Assembly (NCBI GenBank): GCA_036567985.1
Contig: DATCTK010000044.1
Coordinates: forward strand, 14,062 to 78,061
DNA length: 64,000 nucleotides
From: Gammaproteobacteria bacterium
GTDB taxonomy: Bacteria; Pseudomonadota; Gammaproteobacteria; SZUA-229
Direction of reading: 5' to 3'
In this document: piece after piece, positions 1,463 to 54,269 of the stretch
How the letters are laid out: each line of letters starts with the position of its first letter
Numbering within the stretch: position 1 is the first letter of the stretch
The notes under the pieces: model-generated
Database searches by the model: none
What the model was told of the DNA's origin: nothing
Seen by the model: only the letters and a program-made list of their open reading frames with translations
Made by a program: the position numbers and the translations under genes

Positions 1463-1494
1463 GTCCAGGCTTATAAATAAATCTCAATATAAAG

Positions 1495-1534
1495 CACATC
1501 AATAAGGCTGGCATATGCCAGCCTTATTGATGTG
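1495..1534 (+). terminator. Perfect 18-bp stem hairpin downstream of metA (cacatcaataaggctggc-atat-gccagccttattgatgtg). Likely a terminator, although no clear U-tract follows.
   Basis: Inverted repeat read directly from the sequence, 32 nt after the metA stop. Confidence 0.45.
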
Positions 1535-1562
1535 TTACCCGTGCCCTGGTCAGGGTCTGCCA

Positions 1563-1738
1563 GACTGTTAGGGAACCTCTGAAAAACTCAGAGGTTCCGC
1601 GGCACAGGGATGTGCCGCCCCATGACTAAACTAACATGGCAATAACTGTTAAGTTATTGAAAATGAAAAACAAATCGAAATCGCATTTTGATTTGTTTTT
1701 GCTCTGAATAATTCATGGATGAATTATTCAGAGCTTCC
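1563..1738 (+). mobile_element. MITE-like, hairpin-rich repeat element, copy 1 (~176 bp)
   Basis: Reverse complement of 50999-51240 at about 95% identity. The termini are imperfect inverted repeats (GGAACCTCTGA ... TCAGAGCTTCC). It contains five consecutive perfect palindromes and has no coding capacity. Confidence 0.6.
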
Positions 1739-2833
1739 TTAGAAGTAATAATCAATCGAGACATAGACCGCATCGAAATCGGCCTGGTAAATATCGCCGT
1801 CTGCACCGATATCACCGTCTGAGGTCAGGTATTCCAGATAAATCCAGCCCGGACCATAACTGTAGCTGGCACCCAGCGCATGCCCCTGTACGCTGTCCGC
1901 TGTATTGCCCTCGGTGTCTGTGTCTGCAATCGAGGCATCCAGGTAGTAGAACCATTTATCCACTGTGTAGCCCAGTTCTATTGCAGTACGCCAGTTCTCA
2001 ATTTTATTCGCGACATTGGGTAGCTCACGCTCCACCAGTATGTACTGTGCTTTAGTGTAAAAATTGCCGAACTGTCCGTGATAATGCAGATTGAATGCAT
2101 GGTGCCTGCCGCTGAGAGGGGCGTCAGCTGTGGTTGCATACTGGCTGAGGTCCTGTAATCGGCCGGATTGAGCAGAAAAACCCAGTGTCTGTTTGTCTGC
2201 CAGTTGATATTCGATATTGAAAACCGCTGTCTGCATCTTCCGGTAGCTGTCCGGGCTGCCCCAGTGGCCATTATCATCCACGGTATCGGTGCTGGTCTCA
2301 CCCCAGTCGTCAGCGTGGTAATAGGCGAGGTCGTAGTGCAGCTGATTCTGGCTACGACTGTATTTGAAGCCCACGTCCATCTGGTCACCATATCCGCCGA
2401 GGAGAACATCGCCGGGCCAGAAATTCACTGTTTTCCAGCCGAAAGGCACCTGGCTTTTACCGATTTTAAGTTCGCCACCGTCAGTAAACTGATAGGCGAT
2501 CCAGGCCTTGTGCAGGGTGAAATTATCTCCCGTTGAGTTCGCAGCGGGGTTGGTAAAGCCACCTGGACCAAAACGCATCTCGGCGGAGAGATACCAGGGC
2601 TGGCCCTCCTGCTTGTGATCGGCATATAAAATCAGCGCTTCATCGGCGATATCACCACGGGTTTCGCTGTCCAGATCGCTATTGAAGGTAGCGGAACTGA
2701 AATCGGAATCGGTTATATTACGGTAATTAAACCACACGCCGCCACTGAGCGAAGGGGATGCCTGGCTGATTATGGGCGTGATTAGTGCGCAGCTGAGTGA
2801 GCCTGCGATTAGGGTATGAAGCCGTGATTTCAT
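1739..2833 (-). CDS. Outer-membrane beta-barrel (porin-like) protein
   Basis: 364 aa with an N-terminal signal peptide (MKSRLHTLIAGSLSCALITPIISQA). It is rich in alternating aromatic and Gly-Asp residues and has a C-terminal YF. Confidence 0.55.
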   Translation of the reverse strand: MKSRLHTLIAGSLSCALITPIISQASPSLSGGVWFNYRNITDSDFSSATFNSDLDSETRGDIADEALILYADHKQEGQPWYLSAEMRFGPGGFTNPAANSTGDNFTLHKAWIAYQFTDGGELKIGKSQVPFGWKTVNFWPGDVLLGGYGDQMDVGFKYSRSQNQLHYDLAYYHADDWGETSTDTVDDNGHWGSPDSYRKMQTAVFNIEYQLADKQTLGFSAQSGRLQDLSQYATTADAPLSGRHHAFNLHYHGQFGNFYTKAQYILVERELPNVANKIENWRTAIELGYTVDKWFYYLDASIADTDTEGNTADSVQGHALGASYSYGPGWIYLEYLTSDGDIGADGDIYQADFDAVYVSIDYYF

Positions 2834-2926
2834 GGCTGCTCCTTGCTGTGATTGTGCGGTTATTTCATTTTAAAAAATCATCAACACGCAACTGATGCCT
2901 TCTGAACATAGCACACCAAACAGCCT

Positions 2927-2959
2927 GCTGCAGGCTGGTTTAAATTTTCCAGCCTGCAG
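2927..2959 (-). terminator. 11-bp perfect inverted repeat (ctgcaggctgg ... ccagcctgcag) immediately downstream of the sqr stop
   Basis: Read from the sequence. It lies between the convergent/divergent sqr and porin genes. Confidence 0.4.
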
Positions 2960-2972
2960 AGTTAGACGCGTT

Positions 2973-4250
2973 TTATTTATCGTCCTGCAATTTTCTTATG
3001 CCCAGCACCTTAAGCACAAAGGTTTCAAAGATTGAGTCGGTGTTGCCTTTGCGCATTTTTCGCAGAAAGTATTTTTCAAAGCCGATTTTTGCCTGATGTA
3101 CCCACTTGCCTTTTTTATACCAGGTGACATTGCGTGGTGGAATTTGCGGCAGGGCAACAAAAGCAGCACCTGTGTCCCCCATGTCTGCCAGACAGATAGC
3201 ATTCCAGGTGCCACATTTTTCCGGCGCTTCACCACGAATTTCATGCACAATATTGTGCGCAATTGCAGTCGACATGGTTTCAATCATATAGCCAGTTTTG
3301 GGTGCACCCGTAGGCACGGGTGTGGCTTCGACCGGCGGAATAGCAACACAGACACCGGATGAGTAAATATTTTTATATTTCGGGTTGCGCTGGTGTTCAT
3401 CAATCAGTACAAAGCCGCGGGGATTGCACAGGCCTTCAACTGCGGCAATGGCATCAATGCCCTTGAACGCGGGAAGCATCATGGCAAAATTAAAATCCAG
3501 TTCATGGGATTTCTTCAGCTCACCGTCCTCATTCAGCTCATCAACAAACATTTTTCCCTGTTCGACACGGGTGGTTTTTGCATTGGTGATAGTTTTTATA
3601 TCATGGTGACGAAAATCGGATTCCAGCATGCTTTTTGAGTCGCCCACGCCGCCCAGGCCGAGGTGACCGATATAGGGTTCGGAGCTGACATAGGTCATCG
3701 GGTATTTATGGCGGATTTTACGCTTGCGCAGTTCGGCATCCACAATAAACGCAAACTCGTAGGCGGGGCCAAAACAGCTGGCACCTGGCATGGCACCGAT
3801 CACAATCGGTCCGGGATTCTGTAGCAGCTTCTGGAATTCTGTATAGGCCAGTCTGGCATGTTCCGATGTGCATACCGAGGTGGTAAAGCCTTCGGGGCCG
3901 GAGCCGGGCACTTCATCAAAGGCCAGTTTGGGGCCGGTGGCAATTACCAGGTAGTCGTAGCTGACTGGCTCGTGGTTGGTGAATTTTAGCGTATTGTTCT
4001 CTGCATCAATTTCGCTGACGGAGTCTACTATCAGCTGGATACTTTTTTTATCCAGCACCGGTTTGAGTGGTACCGCGATATCTTCTGCGGTACGCCAGCC
4101 AACCGCGAGCCAGGGATTTGACGGGGTAAACTGAAAATGATCCCGGTTATTGATCACCGTTATCTGGTGCTGGCTGTCGAGCTGCTCGCGCAGTTCATAG
4201 GCACAGGGTAAACCACCGATACCTGCACCAATAATTGCAATATGTGCCAT
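2973..4250 (-). CDS. sqr: Sulfide:quinone oxidoreductase (type I SQR)
   Basis: 425 aa. It has the N-terminal FAD fold MAHIAIIGAGIGG and no signal or Tat peptide, which argues against FccB. Strong colinear similarity to Rhodobacter-type SQR (FTPSNPW, IATGP, GASCFGPAYEF, GVCVAIPP, ICLADMGD). Confidence 0.85.
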   Translation of the reverse strand: MAHIAIIGAGIGGLPCAYELREQLDSQHQITVINNRDHFQFTPSNPWLAVGWRTAEDIAVPLKPVLDKKSIQLIVDSVSEIDAENNTLKFTNHEPVSYDYLVIATGPKLAFDEVPGSGPEGFTTSVCTSEHARLAYTEFQKLLQNPGPIVIGAMPGASCFGPAYEFAFIVDAELRKRKIRHKYPMTYVSSEPYIGHLGLGGVGDSKSMLESDFRHHDIKTITNAKTTRVEQGKMFVDELNEDGELKKSHELDFNFAMMLPAFKGIDAIAAVEGLCNPRGFVLIDEHQRNPKYKNIYSSGVCVAIPPVEATPVPTGAPKTGYMIETMSTAIAHNIVHEIRGEAPEKCGTWNAICLADMGDTGAAFVALPQIPPRNVTWYKKGKWVHQAKIGFEKYFLRKMRKGNTDSIFETFVLKVLGIRKLQDDK

Positions 4251-4670
4251 TTTTTAACCCTCCTGCTGGGTATGTGTGAGCTGCTGATAACTGGGACATT
4301 ATGACCGGGTATTGCCCGCAGCCCTGTCAGTGACGTTAATATGTATATGCTACAGCGCATTTTCTGACAATATATTGTGTTTGATCAGCTAATCGCGGAA
4401 TAAAGGCAGGTGTCAGCGCCAGAAACGCCGCTGTTTTGACTATAGCACCACCGTTTCAGTGAATGGAAGCACAGGGGCTGTCATCTGTGCCTGGGGTTCT
4501 ATGGACAGACCCTTCGGACACTTGGTTGTATGTGTTATAAATTATTGTTTATTAAGGAGAAAATATATAAATTATGGTGCGGCTTAGTAACACCAGCATA
4601 ATTAGTGCGCTTAATGCGCGCAGCGTATTGGTGTATAATCAGGGCTGTTATTCACTCGAAAGGTAGACCA

Positions 4671-6516: not shown

Positions 6517-7928
6517 GCGCTTATCTCCGATAATCGTTGTAGCGGATCATATTTGGTCTCGCTGCTATAGGTAAAGTACAACTCGATGCGTGTGCCTTCA
6601 TCAGGTTCGCTTTCGATGCGTAAGTCGCCACCCAGGTAATTGGCGCGTTCGCGCATAATATTAAGCCCGACATGCTTGCCGGGGTGTTCGCTGATATTCG
6701 GTGTTTCAAAACCCTGGCCGTCGTTTTCAATCAGAATATGGTGGTTGCCATTTTCATCGCAACGAAACATCAGGCGTACATTGTGCGCATTGCTGTGCTT
6801 GCGAATATTATTCATCGCTTCCTGCACAATGCGGAAAATGTGCATTTCGAGGTTGGTGGGTAAGTCGGAATTTTCCCATTGCTGCTGCAACAGGATATGC
6901 ATGCCTGTGTCCTTGCGTAAACGGGATATGAGCTTCTCGACCGCGGGCATCAGGCCCTGTTTATCAATTGGCGTACGGCAGTGGGCAATCAGCTCGCGCA
7001 GATCGGAATAGGCTTCATCCAGGCTGTTTTCTACCTGCTCGATGCCACGAATCGATTTGAATTCGGAGGTGGGCTGCAGGGTTTCATCCAGCACCCGTAC
7101 CTGGAAACGTAAACTGGCCAGGGTCTGTGCCAGTGAGTCATGCAGTTCATTGGCGATCAGGCTACGCTCCTGCATAATAATCATGCGTCGGGATTCCTGG
7201 TCCTGTTTGGCTTTTTCAATGGCGATTGACAGTTGATCCGCCAGTGTCGACAGTAATTCAAGTAAATCATTCTGGCTGGCAAACGGGCGCTGGTTCAGCT
7301 TGATACGAATGACGCCCAGGGTGTGCTTGCCGTTGTGCAGTGGCAGGTAATAGGAGCGTACATCATCACTTACATCACACTGCAGGATTTCCGCCAACCG
7401 GGTGACATGCTGGTTGTCATGGATAATGTCGTTTTCAATCAGCGTGCTGGCCAGCTCTTCGGTGATCTTGACCCGCCGCGGCTGTGAAACCACCTTGGGG
7501 TCAATGCCAGAACCGGCAATGTACTCCAGCCAGTTGTTTTCAGTAATCAGCCACACGGATACATTCTTTGCATCCAGTTCTTCATTGGTTTTTTTGCAGA
7601 ACAGCACCAGCACTTCTTTCAGCTCGCGTCCACTGCTCACCGTGCTGGTGACGTTATACAGAATCTGCTGTGCCTTGTTCTGCTGCTGATTGTTCAGTGT
7701 CTGCCTGCGCTGGCTGCGAAAGGCAATATAGGAAATGGCCAGAAACGACAGCAGCAGCAACACGATGTGTATGCTCAGCGGCAGGGTTTTTGAGCCCTCA
7801 GTGGTCGCCAGCCAGATGCCGGTGAGCAGTAGTAGACTGAGCAGGGTAAACAGCGCAGTGATGCAGTTAAGCAAATGCTTGAGAGACATTTGCCTGAATT
7901 CCATCTGTATACGCTCGGTAAATGACAT
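6513..7928 (-). CDS. Sensor histidine kinase (2 TM, cytoplasmic GAF-like domain, HisKA_3, HATPase_c; NarX-like)
   Basis: 471 aa. Two N-terminal transmembrane helices are separated by a loop of about 10 aa, so no periplasmic sensor. The H-box is ERSLIANELHDSLAQTL and the ATPase carries N/G-boxes (NNIRKHS...GDLRIES). Confidence 0.8.
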   Translation of the reverse strand: MSFTERIQMEFRQMSLKHLLNCITALFTLLSLLLLTGIWLATTEGSKTLPLSIHIVLLLLSFLAISYIAFRSQRRQTLNNQQQNKAQQILYNVTSTVSSGRELKEVLVLFCKKTNEELDAKNVSVWLITENNWLEYIAGSGIDPKVVSQPRRVKITEELASTLIENDIIHDNQHVTRLAEILQCDVSDDVRSYYLPLHNGKHTLGVIRIKLNQRPFASQNDLLELLSTLADQLSIAIEKAKQDQESRRMIIMQERSLIANELHDSLAQTLASLRFQVRVLDETLQPTSEFKSIRGIEQVENSLDEAYSDLRELIAHCRTPIDKQGLMPAVEKLISRLRKDTGMHILLQQQWENSDLPTNLEMHIFRIVQEAMNNIRKHSNAHNVRLMFRCDENGNHHILIENDGQGFETPNISEHPGKHVGLNIMRERANYLGGDLRIESEPDEGTRIELYFTYSSETKYDPLQRLSEISA

Positions 7929-7972
7929 AATGGCCTGCTGCTGTTGTGTTGACTGTGCCGTCTGTTGTCCGC

Positions 7973-8290
7973 TTATTTTTCTTTTGGCGGAACGTAACTC
8001 GGGTCGTTGGGGTTCATAAAGATAAACTGGGGTTCACCACCTTCTTCCAGCGCAACATAGTCAACTTTGGTGCCGTTAAGAAACTCATTGGCGGTGACCG
8101 ATACAATAACATCTACACCTTCGGATGTGTGGGTAATATCACCTTCCTTGATGTCATCGAAGCCCATGCCATAGTGAAAGCTGCCGTCATCCATACGGGT
8201 GCAGGCCAGGCGCAGTGGCAGGCCGTCGAGGTTCGATTCTTTGGCTGAATGTTTGATCTGCTTTGCAGCAGCCGAGGTTAGTGTAATCAT
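7973..8290 (-). CDS. dsrR: DsrR, an IscA-like protein lacking the Fe-S ligand cysteines
   Basis: 105 aa with an IscA/HesB-type N-terminus (MITLTSAAAKQIK) but no C-terminal CxC/CGC motif. It is the last gene of the dsr operon, as in Allochromatium vinosum. Confidence 0.7.
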   Translation of the reverse strand: MITLTSAAAKQIKHSAKESNLDGLPLRLACTRMDDGSFHYGMGFDDIKEGDITHTSEGVDVIVSVTANEFLNGTKVDYVALEEGGEPQFIFMNPNDPSYVPPKEK

Positions 8291-9684
8291 GTGTTACTCC
8301 GCTTAGTACGTTTACAATGCTGTACAAACTGTACAAATCGTTGTGCCCAGTGATTGCTTGCCGTGTCACGCAGGTGAGCATAGCAAGCCAGGGTGTTGTT
8401 GATGATAATGCCGTCAAATTCACCGGTGATGCCCGAACCACGTTTAACCCGGTAGGCAAATTTAACATCCGGGTCGAGGTTTTCAAGTGACGAATAATGG
8501 AACTCGTGCGCGGCAATCAGCGGTGCTGGTTGCGGTGCAAAGTCCAGCCATGGATGCGCCGGCGTTTCTTCCAGCTGGATATAACCCCGTCCCTGGGGTT
8601 TATCGTGCATGACGCAATCGGCGGGAATAAAGCCCACCATATCGCCCTGTGTTTCGTTCCAGCTCAGCTTGCGGCTAAGGTACATCAGCCCACCGCATTC
8701 CGCATAGCAGGGAAGGCCGTCCTGCAATGCCTGTTTGATTGCCTCGCGCATTGTGCGGTTCGCTGACAGTGCTTCAATGCGTGTTTCAGGGAAGCCCCCG
8801 CCAATGAATAAAGCGTCGATCTCGGGCAACTCAGTGTCCCTGATGGTGTCGATTGTTACCAGTTTCGCACCACAATCTTCAAGTGCCTGTAAATCGCCCG
8901 GGTAGTAGAAGCCGAAGGCATCGTTTTTAACCACGCCAATGCTTATCGGCGAGTCGAGTTGAATCGGTGAAGTGACAGAAGTTTCTGGTAGCGTTATTTC
9001 ACCTGCACTGTCGGCAATCGAGCGCAGACCTGATAGATCAACCTGCTGTTTCACCAGGTCACGTATCTGCATAATCTTGCGGTCGGCGGAATCATCTTCA
9101 TTGCTGGGCATCAGGCCCAGGTGGCGTTCCTCGATGGACATGTCGGGGTTGCGCTGCACCGCGCCAATTACTTTGACGTCTGTGTAGTGCTCGATAACCT
9201 GACGCAGTTTGCTTTCATGGCGGCTGCCACCGACCTGGTTGAGAATCACCCCGGCGATATTGATGTCTTTTTCAAATGACTGGTAACCGAGGATCAGCGG
9301 CGCTACCCCACGGCTGACACCACGGGTATCCAGCACCAGCACCACCGGCGCGTTTAGCAGGCGGGCGAGGGCGGCATTGGAGTTACTGCCGTGCAGGTCG
9401 AGGCCGTCGAACAGCCCCTTATTGCCTTCAATCAGTGAAATATCGGCGCTTGCAGATTGCTGTGCGAAGGTCTCGCGGATTTCATCCTGCTGCATGGTGT
9501 AGAAATCCAGATTATGGCAGGGGCGACCGCTGGCACGTCCCAGCCACATGGGGTCGATATAATCCGGGCCTTTCTTGAATGGTTGAACCCGCAGGCCGCT
9601 TTCAGCCAGTGCTGCGCATAAGCCAATACTCAGGGTGGTTTTACCTGAGGATTTATGTGCTGCTGAGATAAGAAAATGCGACAT
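8287..9684 (-). CDS. dsrN: DsrN, a cobyrinate a,c-diamide synthase-like siroheme amidase
   Basis: 465 aa. CobB/CbiA family, with an N-terminal P-loop (AAHKSSGKTT) and a C-terminal glutamine amidotransferase domain. The stop overlaps the dsrR start (ATGA). Confidence 0.85.
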   Translation of the reverse strand: MSHFLISAAHKSSGKTTLSIGLCAALAESGLRVQPFKKGPDYIDPMWLGRASGRPCHNLDFYTMQQDEIRETFAQQSASADISLIEGNKGLFDGLDLHGSNSNAALARLLNAPVVLVLDTRGVSRGVAPLILGYQSFEKDINIAGVILNQVGGSRHESKLRQVIEHYTDVKVIGAVQRNPDMSIEERHLGLMPSNEDDSADRKIMQIRDLVKQQVDLSGLRSIADSAGEITLPETSVTSPIQLDSPISIGVVKNDAFGFYYPGDLQALEDCGAKLVTIDTIRDTELPEIDALFIGGGFPETRIEALSANRTMREAIKQALQDGLPCYAECGGLMYLSRKLSWNETQGDMVGFIPADCVMHDKPQGRGYIQLEETPAHPWLDFAPQPAPLIAAHEFHYSSLENLDPDVKFAYRVKRGSGITGEFDGIIINNTLACYAHLRDTASNHWAQRFVQFVQHCKRTKRSNT

Positions 9685-9891
9685 GCTGTTAGGTTACCTG
9701 TAACAAGAAAACGCCAGACTAAACAGCGAATCCGCGCAGCATTGCTGCCAATAGAATTGTGCTGGTTTATATAGGGCCACTGGCTGGTTTTTCAATCGTT
9801 CCCCTTTAACAGCGTATAAATACAAACGGCTCGAAGTGAACTCCGAGCCGTTGTTAGCGGGTGATCAGGTCATTGACCTAACCCGTTTTAT

Positions 9892-11115
9892 TTATTCCGC
9901 TTTGGCGTGTGGATCTGCAACCGAATCTGCAAGTGACGCAGGCAGGAAGCCCAGTACCTTGACACCGAACGCAATCATCAGCAGTGACAGTGCAACACCA
10001 CCCAGACCCAGCATAATTTCCGGCAGGGTAGCTGAGTACTGGCTGACAAGTCCATCATTAAAGCCACTTTCCAGAATGGTCATGCCCGGGAACATTTCCA
10101 GCGGGTAGGCCTGGCCGGCAATGATAATGGTGTACAGCTGTGCAAGGCCACCGAACACAACCAGCACACTGGCCAGTGTTAATGTCTTGCGGCAGTTGGC
10201 AACGGCGGGTGCGTAGATCAGCGCCAGTGGAACCAGGCTACCCAGCAGTATCTGGCCAACCCAGAAGATCATCGAATACTTCTCACCGCCATTTTCACCC
10301 AGCAGCATAAAGGCTTCAAAGCCATGGTGCTCGGTCGCGTACAGGTTAGAGATGTGATACACGAATACAAAGTAGAGTACCGCCAGCACAAACACGCCGA
10401 GTAATTTACGCAGACGATTCACCACAACATCACCCAGCTCACGGCCAGTCCAGTTATAAGACGCCAGCAGTACCAGGATAAACACAGCCAGACCGAACGA
10501 GAACGACATAATAATAAACATCGGAGCCATCATCGCCATGTCATAGCCGGTGCGGGCTACAAGGAAGCCGAAGATTGAACCGGTACCCGTGGTCAGTGCC
10601 AGGCGCCATACAAAGGCGGCAATACCCGCATAGCGGCTGTACTGTTTCATGGTGCGATCCAGCATAAACCAGGCATAGACACCGACGATAACGAAGAAGC
10701 CGTTATACAGGATCATATTCCAGGCAAAGATGGACTTGAAGTTGTAATAGGTCATGGCAACGATCAGTCGATCCGGGCGACCCAGGTCAAGAACAAGTAT
10801 CATCAGGCCGCCAGCCAGCAACGCCAGGGCTACCAGAGTAGACAGCGGTGCCAGTGGCTTATAGATCTTCTTGTTAAAAACCGAGGAGATAGATGCAACA
10901 TTGAGCGCGCCAGAAGCGGCAACAATCAGGAATACCGCGAATACATGGGGCATGCCCCAGACAACCTGGTTGTCCATGCCGGTAACCCAGTGTCCGTTGT
11001 GCTCCATATAGTAGGTAGAGCCCAGTGCGCCGAGAATAAAGGCGCCTAGCAGGGCTACAAGCCCCATATAGCCTGCGCTTTTACCTTCAATTGCTTGTAA
11101 GTGTATTTTTTTCAT
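9892..11115 (-). CDS. dsrP: DsrP, an NrfD/PsrC-like integral membrane subunit of the DsrMKJOP complex
   Basis: 407 aa, polytopic membrane protein. It occupies the canonical position after dsrO. Confidence 0.85.
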   Translation of the reverse strand: MKKIHLQAIEGKSAGYMGLVALLGAFILGALGSTYYMEHNGHWVTGMDNQVVWGMPHVFAVFLIVAASGALNVASISSVFNKKIYKPLAPLSTLVALALLAGGLMILVLDLGRPDRLIVAMTYYNFKSIFAWNMILYNGFFVIVGVYAWFMLDRTMKQYSRYAGIAAFVWRLALTTGTGSIFGFLVARTGYDMAMMAPMFIIMSFSFGLAVFILVLLASYNWTGRELGDVVVNRLRKLLGVFVLAVLYFVFVYHISNLYATEHHGFEAFMLLGENGGEKYSMIFWVGQILLGSLVPLALIYAPAVANCRKTLTLASVLVVFGGLAQLYTIIIAGQAYPLEMFPGMTILESGFNDGLVSQYSATLPEIMLGLGGVALSLLMIAFGVKVLGFLPASLADSVADPHAKAE

Positions 11116-23650: not shown

Positions 23651-23838
23651 TGCTGTAGATGACCCAGGTTATTGAAAATTAAAAGAAAAATAAAATCTCT
23701 GCGCCAGATGCGGATAAACAAGATTTATAAGTCCATATATAACTAATGGGATAAGTGACATTAATGGGCTTTTATGATTAAGTATGCGCCCTAGAAATTA
23801 CTTGTTTAACTTGATCAATTGGGACTGAGGCAACAATC

Positions 23839-30416: not shown

Positions 30417-30435
30417 TAAGTAACTGTCCAGCTCA

Positions 30436-30525
30436 CCTCTGGGGCGCTCCATCTCTGCGTTGAAAAATGGTCATTTACGCGTTGTAAACTCACATTTTTC
30501 GCCTTGAGCTGAAGCACCCCAGAGG
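30436..30525 (+). repeat. Structured leader element A (core ctgcgttgaaaaatggtcatttacgcgttgtaaactcacatttttcgccttg, flanked by the 12-bp inverted repeat cctctggggcgc / gcaccccagagg)
   Basis: About 90% identical to the element at 31661-31765. Each sits in the 5' leader of one of the two consecutive genes, the MoxR-like AAA+ gene and the vWA/HExxH gene. Confidence 0.55.
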
Positions 30526-30604
30526 CAATCTGAACAGTCACGGTCAATGTTAAATTAAAGCTATAAACTTCATCTAAAAGCAAAATTATTAATTCGGGAT
30601 AGTC

Positions 30605-31645
30605 ATGCGCCCAGCAAAATTATTATCAGTTCTTAATCGTGAATTTCTCAGTACCGAAACCGGTCATCACACCCCGGTGATGTTGTGGGGGCCACCGGGG
30701 GTGGGCAAGTCGCAGATGGTTGCCCAGGTGGCGGAGCGACACGACATTCCGGTGATTGATATCCGCCTGTCACAGATGGAGCCCAGCGACCTGCGGGGGA
30801 TTCCGTTTAAAAACGGTAATGCGGTGGAGTGGGCCGTGCCGGCGATGCTGCCGGATGCGGAGCGTCACGGAGCAAAAGGTATTCTGTTCCTGGACGAGGT
30901 GACCTCGGCCCCGCCCAGTGTCTCCGCTGCCGCCTACCAGCTGATTCTGGATCGGAAGCTGGGTAACTATGAAGTGCCCGATGGGTGGGCGATTTTTGCC
31001 GCGGGCAACCGCCAGGGCGACCGCGGTGTCACCTACACCATGCCGGCGCCACTGGCCAATCGCTTCTCCCATTATGAAGTGGATGTCAACCTGGATGACT
31101 GGGTGGCCTGGGCCTGGGAGCACAACATCAATGAGCGGGTGATCGGTTTCCTGCGTTTCCGTCCCGATCTGCTGTTTGATTTTGACCCGGCGCATAACCC
31201 GGTGGCCTTCCCCTCGCCACGTTCCTGGGAGTTTGCCCACAATGCACTGCACAAGTTCGAGGATCACCCCGATCTGTTGCTGGGTACACTGCAGGCCTGT
31301 GTAGGCCCGGCGGCAGGGGTGGAACTGAATGCCTTTATCGAAAGCCTGGATCAGATGCCGGATCTGGATGCGATTATTGCCGGTGAAAAAGTCGCGGCAC
31401 CTAAAGAGATTGATCTGCAATACGCGGTGGCCGCCGCACTGGTGGGTCGTGCGATTCGCGTCAGGGGCACTGCTGAAGCCCCCCAGGTGATGGGCAATAT
31501 TCTCAAATACGCGAAAAATTTCCGCCAGAAGGAAATGGGTGTGATGATGGTGTCGGATATGCACCGCGCGATTGGTGAGGATATCTTCGCGGTGCCGGAG
31601 TTTGCCGAATGGGCAAATGATATCGCCGAGCTAATGATTTATTAA
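30605..31645 (+). CDS. MoxR-like AAA+ ATPase (AAA_5 family)
   Basis: 346 aa with Walker A GPPGVGKS, Walker B ILFLDEV and sensor motifs. Confidence 0.85.
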   Translation: MRPAKLLSVLNREFLSTETGHHTPVMLWGPPGVGKSQMVAQVAERHDIPVIDIRLSQMEPSDLRGIPFKNGNAVEWAVPAMLPDAERHGAKGILFLDEVTSAPPSVSAAAYQLILDRKLGNYEVPDGWAIFAAGNRQGDRGVTYTMPAPLANRFSHYEVDVNLDDWVAWAWEHNINERVIGFLRFRPDLLFDFDPAHNPVAFPSPRSWEFAHNALHKFEDHPDLLLGTLQACVGPAAGVELNAFIESLDQMPDLDAIIAGEKVAAPKEIDLQYAVAAALVGRAIRVRGTAEAPQVMGNILKYAKNFRQKEMGVMMVSDMHRAIGEDIFAVPEFAEWANDIAELMIY

Positions 31646-31660
31646 AATAATGGTCCATAT

Positions 31661-31765
31661 TAGCCCTGTGCCATCACATGCCTGCGTTGAAAAATGGACA
31701 CTTACCTATGTAAGCTCACATTTTTCGCCTTGCCCTGTGACCGCACAGAACTAATCTGAACCATT
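31661..31765 (+). repeat. Structured leader element B (core ctgcgttgaaaaatggacacttacctatgtaagctcacatttttcgccttg)
   Basis: Direct repeat of element A. It lies between the MoxR stop and the vWA gene start. Confidence 0.55.
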
Positions 31766-31793: not shown

Positions 31794-33101
31794 ATGGCAA
31801 TTGATCTGGAAAAAAAGCTGGCGACTGCTCGCACAAAACTGATCCTGGAAAAACCCTTCCTGGGCGCACTGGTATTGCGCCTGCCGATGGTGCGCGCAAA
31901 GGATGACTGGTGTGATGCCACCTTCAGCAATGGCAAGAAGCTGTATTACAACGAGCACTATATCGATGCGCTGAGCCCCGAGCAGACCCAGTTTGCACTG
32001 GCCCATGAAGCGCTGCACTGTGCACTGTCACATTTCGCCCGTCGCCAGAACCGGGTGCAGCACCGCTGGGACATGGCCTGTGACTTTGCCATCAATCCGA
32101 TGCTAATCAACGACGGTATGAAACCGCCGCCGGATGTGAATTATCTGCGCGAATACGACGGCATGACGGCCGAGGAAATTTATCCACTGCTCGAAGATAA
32201 CGATAATGATCGGGAGCGGGAGCTGCAACAGGAGATCAACCCGGATTCTGATAATGATCAGGACGAGGACAACGAAAGCAGTACCGGTGATCAGCCCGAG
32301 GAACAGCACGAAGGTAAAAACCAGAAACAGAAAAGTGACTCCCAGGGGCGCGGTGAAGATCAGGGCGGTGCCCGTGAGGACAATTCAGAGGCCAGTGGTG
32401 ATGACGGCAAACAGCAGTCGGGCCCACCGGAAGAAGGCGAGGGTGAGCCGGAGCCGCTGACCCCGCAGGAAATCGAATCGCTCAGCCTGCAATGGCAGCA
32501 GCGCATGGCCAGTGCCGCGCAGCAGGCGATACAGGCGGGCAAGCTGGGTGGCTCAATGGCGCGCATGGTGGATCACCTGCTGCAGCCCCGATTGCCCTGG
32601 CGCATGTTGCTGTCACGCTATATCACCATGGTCGCGAGGGATGATTACACCTATGCGCGGCCCTCAAGCCGCCGTGGCGACCCGGCAGTGTATCCCAGCC
32701 TGCGCAGCGCGCAGCTGAATATTGTGGTGGCGCTGGATATCAGTGGCTCGATTTCGGAAAAGGAAGTGGCGGAGTTTGTCTCCGAGGTGGATTCAATTAA
32801 AAGCATGATCCGCGCCCGGGTGACCCTGCTGGCCTGTGACTCCCACCTGGCGGAAGGCTGCCCCTGGGTATTCGAGCCCTGGGAAGAATTTAAAATGCCA
32901 AAGACCTTCAAGGGCGGCGGCGGCACCCGCTTTACCCCGGTTATCGAATGGGTAGAAGCGCAGGACGAAGCCCCTAATTTGCTAGTGTACTTTACTGATG
33001 CCCAGGGTGAGTTTCCTGATAAAGAACCCAGCTTTCCAGTCACCTGGCTGGTTAAAGGCAAAACACCGGTGCCCTGGGGGCAGCGGGTGCAGTTAAACTA
33101 G
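31794..33101 (+). CDS. vWA-domain protein with an N-terminal putative HExxH zinc-metallopeptidase domain (DUF2201-type architecture)
   Basis: 435 aa. HEALHCALSH (HExxH) sits in the N-domain. The C-domain has a VWA fold with the MIDAS-like VVALDISGS. In between is an acidic, low-complexity linker (DNDQDEDNESSTGDQPEE...). Confidence 0.7.
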   Translation: MAIDLEKKLATARTKLILEKPFLGALVLRLPMVRAKDDWCDATFSNGKKLYYNEHYIDALSPEQTQFALAHEALHCALSHFARRQNRVQHRWDMACDFAINPMLINDGMKPPPDVNYLREYDGMTAEEIYPLLEDNDNDRERELQQEINPDSDNDQDEDNESSTGDQPEEQHEGKNQKQKSDSQGRGEDQGGAREDNSEASGDDGKQQSGPPEEGEGEPEPLTPQEIESLSLQWQQRMASAAQQAIQAGKLGGSMARMVDHLLQPRLPWRMLLSRYITMVARDDYTYARPSSRRGDPAVYPSLRSAQLNIVVALDISGSISEKEVAEFVSEVDSIKSMIRARVTLLACDSHLAEGCPWVFEPWEEFKMPKTFKGGGGTRFTPVIEWVEAQDEAPNLLVYFTDAQGEFPDKEPSFPVTWLVKGKTPVPWGQRVQLN

Positions 33102-50864: not shown

Positions 50865-50998
50865 CTGGGCGTTATACTGCAATGTATAACTGAGTATTTT
50901 TGCGACGGATCATCCGGCGGGCTTTTCGGGCTAATTAAACCGATTGTCTGCACAGGCAAATAAATTGTCCCGCAGGCAGAAGTTTTCAAAGCATCTTA

Positions 50999-51240
50999 GG
51001 AAGCTCTGAATAATTCATCCATGAATCATTCGTCTGGAACGAATGATCGCACTAGCTCCGAAGGGGTGAGTCTCATGGATGAGACGAACAATGATCAGAG
51101 CAAAAACAAATTAAAATGCGATTTTTATTTGTTTTTCATTTTCAATAACTTAGCAGTTATTGCCATGTTAGTTTAGTCATGGGGCGGCACATCCATGTGC
51201 CGCGGAACCTCTGAGAAACTCAGAGGTTCCCTAAATCAGT
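50999..51240 (-). mobile_element. MITE-like, hairpin-rich repeat element, copy 2 (~242 bp, inverted relative to copy 1, with a ~70-bp internal insertion)
   Basis: The reverse complement aligns with 1563-1738. The extra segment at about 51023-51095 itself contains two more perfect palindromes. Confidence 0.6.
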
Positions 51241-51635: not shown

Positions 51636-51764
51636 GCAGGTTGAGTCTGCCTGCACTGCTTAGCCAATCACGCTTATTAAGCAGAATCGATAACACTATT
51701 TTTCCGGAATCGGAAACGGCAGTGGACCCACAAGCCTGCATAATTAAACAGGAACCCTGCTACT

Positions 51765-52160
51765 AAGTCGTAGCTGATGAAGTTGAGCTTTATACGGCGG
51801 AATACCATTCAGGCATGCCAATGATGCTGAGGGCTCTACCGGCTGTGGTAAGTCGCGCTTTGTTGAATACATGGCGTTACACTGGGGCGTTTCCTGCTGG
51901 ATAGCGATGGTACCCGGTGGCAGGGGCCCATTGGCGACCGCGGCGCGTATCGGCGCTATCTGTTACCTTGACGAAGTGGTTGAGGCCCGTCAGGATACCA
52001 CGGTGATTATACACCCGTTGACAGACCATCGACGCACCCTGCCACTGGATAAAAACTGGATAAAAAAGGTGAGCTGATTGAAGCGCACCCCGACTTCCAG
52101 CTGGTGATTTCCTGTAACCCCGGCTACCAGAGCCTGATGAAAGACCTCAAGCAGTAGACA
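51765..52160 (+). pseudogene. Decayed CbbQ/NorQ/NirQ-family MoxR AAA+ ATPase gene (internal deletion, frameshifts and premature stop)
   Basis: Three pieces can be read in different frames: [17 protein letters not shown]; [12 protein letters not shown] / [43 protein letters not shown]; and [29 protein letters not shown]. In frame 1 a stop occurs immediately after SCWIAM (in the deleted middle region), and a frameshift precedes the final piece; the protein ends after about 130 of roughly 270 residues. Confidence 0.65.
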
Positions 52161-52295
52161 CCTTTTTTGCCTGACGACGGGCTTATGCAGCCAGCCACAA
52201 TGCATTAAAATAGCCGGGCATTGGCAAAAAATAAATAATTGGCCAGGTCTGAAGCCCTGGTTTCTAATCAAGATTAAGAGATAGTAAGCGCCACC

Positions 52296-53152: not shown

Positions 53153-54115
53153 ATGGCTAAGGCGCATTTCTCAGAACTGATTGGTCAGTCGGCTGCATTG
53201 CAGCAGTTACTGAATACCGCCGCCCTGCTGGCGGTAACGGATGTGACGGTGCTAATAGAAGGGGCTACCGGCACCGGCAAGGAACTGCTGGCGCGGGCAT
53301 TGCACCAGTCCAGCCCGCGCAGCCAGCGTGATTTTGTTGCAGTGAACTGTGCCTCCTTGCCGGAAGGTCTGGTTGAGTCACAGCTGTTTGGTCACCGCAA
53401 AGGCGCCTTTACCGGTGCGGACCAGGACCATAAAGGCTTTGTGCAGCAGGCGGAAGGCGGCACACTGTTTCTGGATGAAGTGGGCGAGCTGTCACTGGCG
53501 GCGCAGGCGCGGCTGTTACGTTTTATCGAATACGGCGAATGCCAGCGTGTGGGAGACAGTCAACCGGGTAAAAGCAATGTGCGTATCCTTGCCGCCACTA
53601 ACCGCAACCTGCAACAGCAGGTGCAATCCGGCGAGTTCAGGGAAGACCTGTATTTTCGCCTCAAGGTGGTTCCCCTCGAGCTGCCCACGCTGGCGCAACG
53701 CAGAGACGACGTGCCGCTACTGGCACAGCATTTTATCCAGCAGATTGCAGCGCAGTATGATCTGCCTGCTGCAAGACTCAGTCGCGACGCGATAAAACGT
53801 CTGCAGGCTTATAGCTGGCCGGGCAATGTGCGTGAATTGCGTAATCTGTGTGAGTCGCTGGTGGTGTTACTACAGGGAAAAACCATTGACGCCAGTAATC
53901 TGCCGACACATATCAGCGCGGATTCACTGCCTCATGCCGGGGCCCATGCCGGCTTTAAATTGCCCGCCAGTGGTATCAGGCTGGATGAACTGGAAGTGGA
54001 TTTACTGCAACAGGCGCTGCAGGCCAGCGCCGGTAATAAATCACGCGCCGCGCGCCTGCTGGGTATTAGTCGGGATGTGTTTCTGTATCGCCTGAAAAAG
54101 TACGCCATTGCCTGA
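53153..54115 (+). CDS. Sigma-54-dependent transcriptional activator (AAA+ sigma-54 interaction domain plus Fis-type HTH, no N-terminal sensor domain; PspF-like)
   Basis: GAFTGA motif, Walker A GATGTGKE, and a C-terminal HTH. Confidence 0.85.
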
Positions 54116-54269
54116 GCGGGTATTATACTGGCCTGGAAAAAAACCGTAGGTTGGGGTAAGGCACGCACCCCAACATAACCCACTGAATATTCCTGTGGCG
54201 TTGGGGTTCCTGCGTCACCCCAACCTACTGCTACATCACTCACGCGGGATTCAGTACGTTTGACCCGGC

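Follow-up and report, generated by a model that had tools for sequence, protein, structure and literature searches.

Correia elements of Neisseria and ERIC elements of Enterobacteriaceae are MITEs, which are small, non-coding, highly structured and intergenic and are bounded by terminal inverted repeats (TIRs). The target duplicated by Correia elements is TA. The REP/BIME sequences are extragenic palindromic units, present singly or in mosaics and mobilised by RAYT; REPs are associated with RAYT genes, and neither the REP/BIME nor the IS200/IS605 systems have TIRs or duplicate their targets. IS5 duplicates a target with the motif YTAR (PMC5009759). Hairpin tips carrying GGA are typical of the Csr/Rsm small RNAs (CsrB and RsmX/Y/Z/W): the CsrB repeats read CAGGA(U/A/C)G, the SELEX consensus is RUACARGGAUGU with the GGA in a hairpin loop, and strong CsrA ligands have short stems (PMC7652899). 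The element described here is very probably a non-autonomous DNA transposon (MITE) belonging to a large family of environmental Gammaproteobacteria. This family has all of the above features of Correia and ERIC elements, as well as size variants that arise by internal insertions and deletions and possible co-transcription with neighbouring genes (reviewed in PMC10969869), but differs from them in sequence, TIRs, host range and a 4-bp YTAR target-site duplication (TSD). The family is apparently unnamed so far, as a description of it was found neither in Rfam nor in a review of prokaryotic MITEs from 2024 (PMC10969869), nor by sequence, keyword and taxon searches, with ISfinder outside the scope; literature searches by sequence returned only primers and unrelated genes.

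The window, i.e., the whole stretch of 64,000 nucleotides that was analysed, contains two copies. Copy 1 (1572-1738, + strand; 167 bp) is a non-coding chain of consecutive hairpins that matches the family profile over its full length (nhmmer, E = 1e-32). It sits between two convergent genes, after the stop codon of metA (1462) and before that of a porin-like ORF (1739-2833, minus strand); the only ORFs overlapping copy 1 or copy 2 are spurious (51-53 aa). The termini, GGAACCTCTGA and TCAGAGCTTCC, are 11-nt TIRs that match at 10 of 11 bases, so that the near-perfect inverted-repeat ends reported in the preliminary description were borne out; when the arms are extended to 27 nt, they are 78% complementary. 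A perfect TSD, TTAG, is present on the left (1568-1571) and on the right (1739-1742). The extent originally given, 1563-1738, is hence corrected to the 167 bp between the duplicated TTAG copies, while the claim that the element abuts the porin stop codon stands: the porin ORF ends at 1739, within the right TSD, and 1739-1741 is its stop codon, TAA on the minus strand. The folding check proposed for this element was also informative, with the predicted fold being far more stable than that of shuffled sequence for both the + strand (-84.4 kcal/mol, z = -11.05) and the - strand (-77.1 kcal/mol, z = -10.98).

All five of the palindromes that had been noted are present and perfect, in the case of H4 over the inner 9-11 nt. 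In H1 (1572-1598), the left TIR (1572-1582) and a second, internal occurrence of the right-TIR sequence, TCAGAGGTTCC (1588-1598), form a perfect stem of 11 bp around the loop AAAAC. H2 (1599-1618), which reads GCGGCACA-GGGA-TGTGCCGC, has a perfect 8-bp stem (arms 1599-1606 and 1611-1618) and a tip, ACAGGGATGT, with the family-invariant CANGGANG motif. It is followed by a 21-nt lineage-specific patch, CCCATGACTAAACTAACATGG (1619-1639), which takes the place of some of the outer 5' arm of H3; one more small hairpin, the sixth, is formed by CCATG..CATGG at 1620-1639. The inner part of H3 (1640-1659) pairs CAATAACT with AGTTATTG (arms 1640-1647 and 1652-1659). H4 (1666-1700) is A/T-rich, with 16 nt per arm (1666-1681 and 1685-1700) that are 94% complementary. 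The last segment (1701-1738) contains both H5 (1701-1734), a perfect 16-bp stem (arms 1701-1716 and 1719-1734) with the tip CATGGATG, and the right TIR (1728-1738). All of these features are on the + strand.

A second, inverted copy had been reported 49 kb away and is indeed present at 50999-51230 on the minus strand (family-profile match, E = 5e-30). Copy 2 has a length of 232 bp because of a 65-nt insertion with two extra hairpins (51030-51094, minus strand) that is located, by alignment with copy 1, inside the last hairpin, H5; the same insertion is found in two other family members (L007 and L117). Over their shared parts, the two copies are 94% identical. The flanks of copy 2, CTTA (50995-50998) and CTAA (51231-51234), constitute an imperfect TSD, i.e., TTAG versus TAAG in the orientation of the element, with one mismatch. 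The loop of its H1 (51204-51230, minus strand) is inverted relative to its subfamily (GTTTC versus AAAAC), an inversion shared by few members of the family (about 5 of 180 oriented copies). An almost identical copy 2 occupies the orthologous site in Ga0209692_10000113 (L253), in L254 and in other samples. No third copy and no other TIR match was detected in the 64-kb window. A similarity at 23668-23697 (80% over 30 nt) was considered as a third copy and rejected as an A/T-rich chance match.

Relatives of these two copies are numerous. A scan with H1 with a free loop, GGAACCTCTGA-N5-TCAGAGGTTCC (a 27-nt terminal hairpin), detected at least 120 stretches in metagenomes and at least 119 in species-representative genomes, together more than 240 contigs. 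Among the genome matches listed, almost all hosts are Gammaproteobacteria, and they include Lysobacterales (Thermomonas, Lysobacter and Ahniella among them), Chromatiales, Acidiferrobacterales, Halothiobacillus and Ectothiorhodospiraceae. On a single 3.5-Mb chromosome (OZ244905.1), H1 is matched at least 10 times. Many matches are at contig ends, as expected for a repeat that breaks assemblies, and it is a repeat that breaks the assemblies of many environmental Gammaproteobacteria. Annotation may also mistake the element for a terminator or a structured RNA; with a named family model, it could be masked and insertion polymorphisms between strains could be flagged.

The architecture beside H1 is recurrent. 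It consists of H2 (GCGGCACA-NGGA-TGTGCCGC), H3 (CATTTTCAAT..ATTGAAAATG), an A/T-rich H4, and H5 (GCTCTGAGAATTCCA-GGA-TGGAATTATTCAGAGC), which runs into the right TIR. Three size classes, of 79-87, 149-157 (the main class) and 164-232+ bp, have the same ends, and extra hairpin modules extend some variants to 270-500 bp, such that the family ranges from 79 to about 500 bp. H1 alone (27 bp) was observed between identical 4-bp YTAR repeats at L059 397, L142 7964, L156 3319, L206 4732, L232 5605 and L235 7765. Since H1 comprises the left TIR, a loop and a copy of the right TIR, it may be a 27-bp transposable unit by itself. Rfam yielded no family at the gathering score for the whole window, nor at relaxed E-values for both copies and a standard family member. 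Likewise, no blastn match to the element was found in collections of plasmids and phages, and scans of IMG/VR gave none for H1 and one partial right end. The central 21-mer, when used as the query for the genome scan, had no match; this 21-mer is the lineage-specific patch.

The signature of transposition is evident across the family. Eighty-two copies were delimited, and both 4-bp flanks were readable in 79. The two flanks were identical in 52 of these 79 copies, as compared to 9.3 copies on average, and never more than 19, in 2,000 shuffles of the pairing. YTAR accounted for 37 of the 52 perfect TSDs (15 TTAA, 12 CTAA, 6 TTAG and 4 CTAG), and because the outer bases covary between the left and right flanks, the duplication truly comprises 4 bp and is not one of TA. 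Comparison of relatives at the site of copy 1 provides further evidence. In the closest relative with the same gene order (L244; porin 93% identical), the element occupies the same site and is again enclosed by TTAG repeats, whereas in a more distant relative (L250/L251; porin 84% identical) the site is empty, ...ctgcgtTTAGaagtaataatc..., and TTAG is present once, at the porin stop codon. In the L244 population, short contigs break off 24-50 nt, and in one case 183 nt, past the porin stop codon; the longest of them, L245, spans the element, and the pattern is consistent with a repeat at this position. Several features expected of a bacterial MITE were found, namely small size and lack of coding capacity, TIRs, a TSD of fixed length and many dispersed copies with presence and absence at orthologous sites. 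The suggestion that this is a miniature transposable element is strongly supported by the TIRs, the 4-bp TSD, the hundreds of dispersed relatives and the empty versus filled site.

The most likely means of movement, judging from the sequences of targets and ends, would be mobilisation in trans by a DDE transposase of the IS5 group. The family resembles this group in its 4-bp YTAR TSD, in ends that begin with GGAAG and in its preference for intergenic sites; the reverse complement of the right end, GGAAGCTCTGAATAAT, is identical at 12 of 16 bases, including the first five, to one IS5 end, that of E. coli K-12 IS5A (GGAAGGTGCGAATAAG), the single end used in this comparison. The family differs from IS5 in having no transposase gene, in its interior, a chain of conserved hairpins unrelated to IS5 sequence, and in a left end that is itself a perfect hairpin containing a copy of the right end. 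The search for a cognate insertion sequence with matching TIRs, as advocated in the preliminary description, did not detect one in the window or in 240 loci. No InsH-like ORF was found in either of these by tblastn with E. coli InsH; pairs of TIRs 0.4-3.5 kb apart enclosed ordinary host genes and no transposase; no split matches to the left-end and right-end profiles enclosed a transposase; and all-against-all clustering of 2,739 ORFs identified no recurrent transposase near the copies. Because no autonomous partner was found, the assignment to IS5 is based only on the TSD and the 12 of 16 TIR bases. Each copy in the family is bounded by GGAA(C/G)CTCTGA inverted repeats and a duplicated 4-bp target, usually YTAR; in the mechanism that we propose, an IS5-group DDE transposase, encoded elsewhere, would bind both ends, cut YTAR with a 4-bp stagger and then insert the element.

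This target also accounts for the position of copy 1. YTAR holds TAR on one strand and its complement on the other, and hence stop codons are natural targets. On the coding strand of the porin gene the target is CTAA, in which C is the third base of the final Phe codon and TAA the stop codon; copy 1 abuts the porin stop codon because YTAR has a stop codon on both strands. Within the family, 21 of 82 copies have a flank that coincides with the stop codon of an ORF (80 codons or longer). By distance from the stop codon, the copies peak sharply at 0, with 11 copies on one side and 12 on the other, versus 0-3 at any other distance. The orientation of the elements at stop codons is equal (11 versus 12), with no bias. 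Duplication of the target regenerates the stop codon, so that insertions placed exactly there are harmless and accumulate. The family offers a clean example of a target motif, YTAR, that coincides with stop codons on both strands and permits safe landing at the ends of genes.

Once inserted, the copies appear to retain their palindromes. In an alignment of 33 standard copies, 88% of the cells paired and changes on both sides were detected in 28 of 59 pairs (163 cells), a level that was reached in 0 of 500 shuffles and was much lower in controls with slid partners. Both sides had changed in 7 of 8 pairs of H2 and in 8 of 12 pairs of H4, while the invariance of H1 is a consequence of the way in which copies were chosen. 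Nearly all stem pairs are Watson-Crick. The local history suggests a DNA-level process that keeps the palindromes perfect: in copy 1, as compared to its L244 orthologue, a 1-nt insertion makes H5 perfect, and the terminator palindrome next to it has changed symmetrically in its two arms. Hairpins H1-H5 persist via compensatory changes. The 21-nt patch is found in copy 1, in copy 2 (51163-51183) and in the copy-2 orthologues, and is absent from the L244 orthologue of copy 1 (7096-7246) and from all other family members; single-nucleotide differences near the patch were not co-converted. The simplest reading of this distribution is a short-patch gene conversion from copy 2 to copy 1, over 49 kb. 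In general, the evolution of copies would involve both gene conversion over short patches and changes that make the palindromes perfect.

Other explanations for the element have to be weighed against a MITE. The two copies in the window might be a segmental duplication or a chance pair of palindromic regions, for which the presence of only two copies in 64 kb could be cited, but this is almost certainly not so: the similarity of the two copies stops a few bases beyond the TIRs and the flanks are unrelated past the TSD, hundreds of relatives exist elsewhere, and the orthologous site is empty in one relative and filled in others. Segmental duplication had been named in the preliminary description as the scenario to be favoured if TIRs and TSDs were absent; both are present, and it is excluded in that form. 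Likewise highly improbable is a hairpin repeat of the REP/BIME type or derived from IS200/IS605, moved as single-stranded DNA by a tyrosine (HUH) transposase. The chain of hairpins, the conserved tip motifs with an excess of G.T pairs on one strand, and the existence of solitary hairpin units are all reminiscent of such repeats, and the family shares with REP/BIME sequences the arrangement of extragenic palindromic units, single or in mosaics. Variable 4-bp duplications in 52 of 79 copies and inverted-repeat ends are, however, contrary to movement of this type, and no recurrent protein, RAYT or TnpA, is encoded near the copies. A third proposal was that the element supplies terminators for metA and the porin, i.e., that it is a mobile terminator module that stops transcription of both genes. 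We consider this very unlikely. Copy 1 does lie between convergent genes, straight after the porin stop codon, its hairpins are very stable on both strands, and more family copies are found between convergent than between divergent genes (25 versus 16). However, no T-tract follows any of the hairpins, a scan for promoters and terminators found no terminator-like site inside copy 1 or copy 2, a T-rich tail follows just 2 of the 82 family copies, and copy 2 is upstream of a gene start and antisense to both of its neighbours. The sole terminator-like site found by the scan is outside the element, at 1495-1534, where an ancestral bidirectional terminator palindrome (20+20) lies between metA and the porin gene. 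Its counterpart in both L244 and L250 is a canonical bidirectional terminator, AAAAAAGGCTGA..TCAGCCTTTTTT, with A6/T6 tracts, and as L250 is without the element, this gene pair had its own terminator before the insertion. The proposal is therefore unsupported; most likely, the window copies are passengers in two intergenic regions and not the terminators of their neighbours.

A fourth explanation is compatible with a MITE and competes with the plain form of it only in assigning a strand-specific RNA role to the hairpins. According to this explanation, the hairpins bind CsrA/RsmA and are carried by the MITE as such or were inherited from the mRNA leader and trailer of its parent insertion sequence; upon transcription of the top strand, H2 and H5 would display GGA in their tips and bind CsrA/RsmA, as a decoy or as a regulatory tag on the host transcript. 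The tip of H2 has the form CA-N-GGA-N-G in 74 of 80 distinct copies and that of H5 the form C(A/C)-N-GGA-NG in 64 of 80; both are on the same strand, never on the opposite one, and are the most conserved interior positions; their GGA does not vary, in contrast to the covarying stems and to the variable loops of H1, H3 and H4. The CANGGANG motif resembles a CsrA/RsmA site. The H2 tip in the window is equal to the SELEX core ACARGGAUGU, and the commonest H5 tip of the family, CCAGGATG, contains CAGGATG, the CsrB repeat, although the H5 tip in the window differs. A standard copy has two such hairpins (H2 and H5); in long variants the number rises to between 4 and 7, and although their stems are unrelated, every tip is CANGGANG. 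These variants with extra hairpins were observed in L114 (4281-4750), L108 (8092-8570), L186 (3675-3970) and L057 (1704-1975). The best or recurrent sub-threshold Rfam matches of the long variants are to rsmX (22.9 bits, E = 0.035; gathering 56) and to RsmW (21.5 and 19 bits; gathering 52), all on the top strand. Moreover, on the top strand, G.T pairs (G.U in a transcript) outnumber A.C pairs 2.7-fold (117 versus 44); the excess is 43 versus 8 when counted by sequences and 16 versus 4 by sequence clusters (p = 0.012). The invariant tips on one strand and the G.T excess go beyond what a plain MITE predicts.

Several observations are nevertheless at odds with an RNA role. The orientation of the element is not biased, either between co-directional genes (27 sense versus 18 antisense) or at stop codons. 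No promoter was found in the element, no GacA/UvrY box was found upstream beyond the control level, and there is no terminator tail. Rfam gave no Rsm-clan match for the window copies or the standard copy, and all scores were far below gathering. The stems, of 8-16 bp with 3-4-nt loops, are long in comparison with the short stems of strong CsrA ligands (PMC7652899). The family is therefore like the Csr/Rsm small RNAs in having GGA in hairpin tips within CANGGANG, 2 to 7 times and on one strand, and unlike them in falling below the Rfam gathering scores, in lacking its own promoter, GacA box and terminator, in its long and perfect stems, in being bounded by TIRs and a TSD and in inserting in either orientation. 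On balance, we regard an RNA role as unlikely. That the family scatters CsrA-binding modules, with its hairpins under a strand-specific, single-strand constraint and the long variants as possible Rsm-like decoys, is an unlikely proposition as well, if one that would provide a transposon-borne route for rewiring the Csr/Rsm global regulator or for creating its antagonists. Under this minority reading, if the GGA tips bind CsrA/RsmA, the spread of a transposon would be linked to a global post-transcriptional regulator. Speculatively, the observations for and against an RNA role could be brought together if the hairpins were inherited from the leader and trailer of the transcript of a parent insertion sequence, with selection on the transposase mRNA. 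A MITE remains by far the preferred reading of the element.

Some differences between the window and its relatives were observed around copy 1. Both arms of the palindrome at 1495-1534 have changed symmetrically in the window (CAATAAGGCTGG / CCAGCCTTATTG); complementarity is perfect and both T-tracts are lost. In L250/L251, a 3.7-kb block (7090-10850) is located between the porin gene and metA and encodes a 123-aa ORF, an ECF sigma factor, an anti-sigma factor, a small ORF and a TPR protein. The last four of these are downstream of metA in two other relatives (L001 7732-11497), and the block is absent from the window (1463-1570) and from L244. Loss of the block through the element was considered and rejected, as the junction is at or before the terminator palindrome and not at the element. 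The region 1739-4407 of the window, with the porin gene and a sulfide:quinone-reductase-like gene, is only 83% identical to Ga0209692_10000113, as compared to 92-97% for its flanks and for the region at about 48-54 kb; from these identities, the genome is probably a mosaic generated by recombination.

Further observations concern other parts of the window. A cbbQ/norQ-like AAA gene (266 aa in L253 and L254) sits between a 103-aa ORF and a DsbD_2 gene in relatives; at about 51700-52295 of the window this gene is apparently broken, with about 290 nt missing near 52155 and no long ORF. A 29-nt inverted repeat (GTAGGTTGGGGTAAGGCACGCACCCCAAC ...; 86% complementary, with a 25-nt spacer) is present at 54146-54228, after the ORF at 53153-54115. 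Finally, a repeat of about 115 nt (70-77% identical) occurs at 30418-30535 and 31645-31761, upstream of two neighbouring ORFs (30605-31645 and 31794-33101) that may be paralogues; a CTTAC-N4/5-GTAAG palindrome, present in both repeats, is possibly a shared regulatory site.
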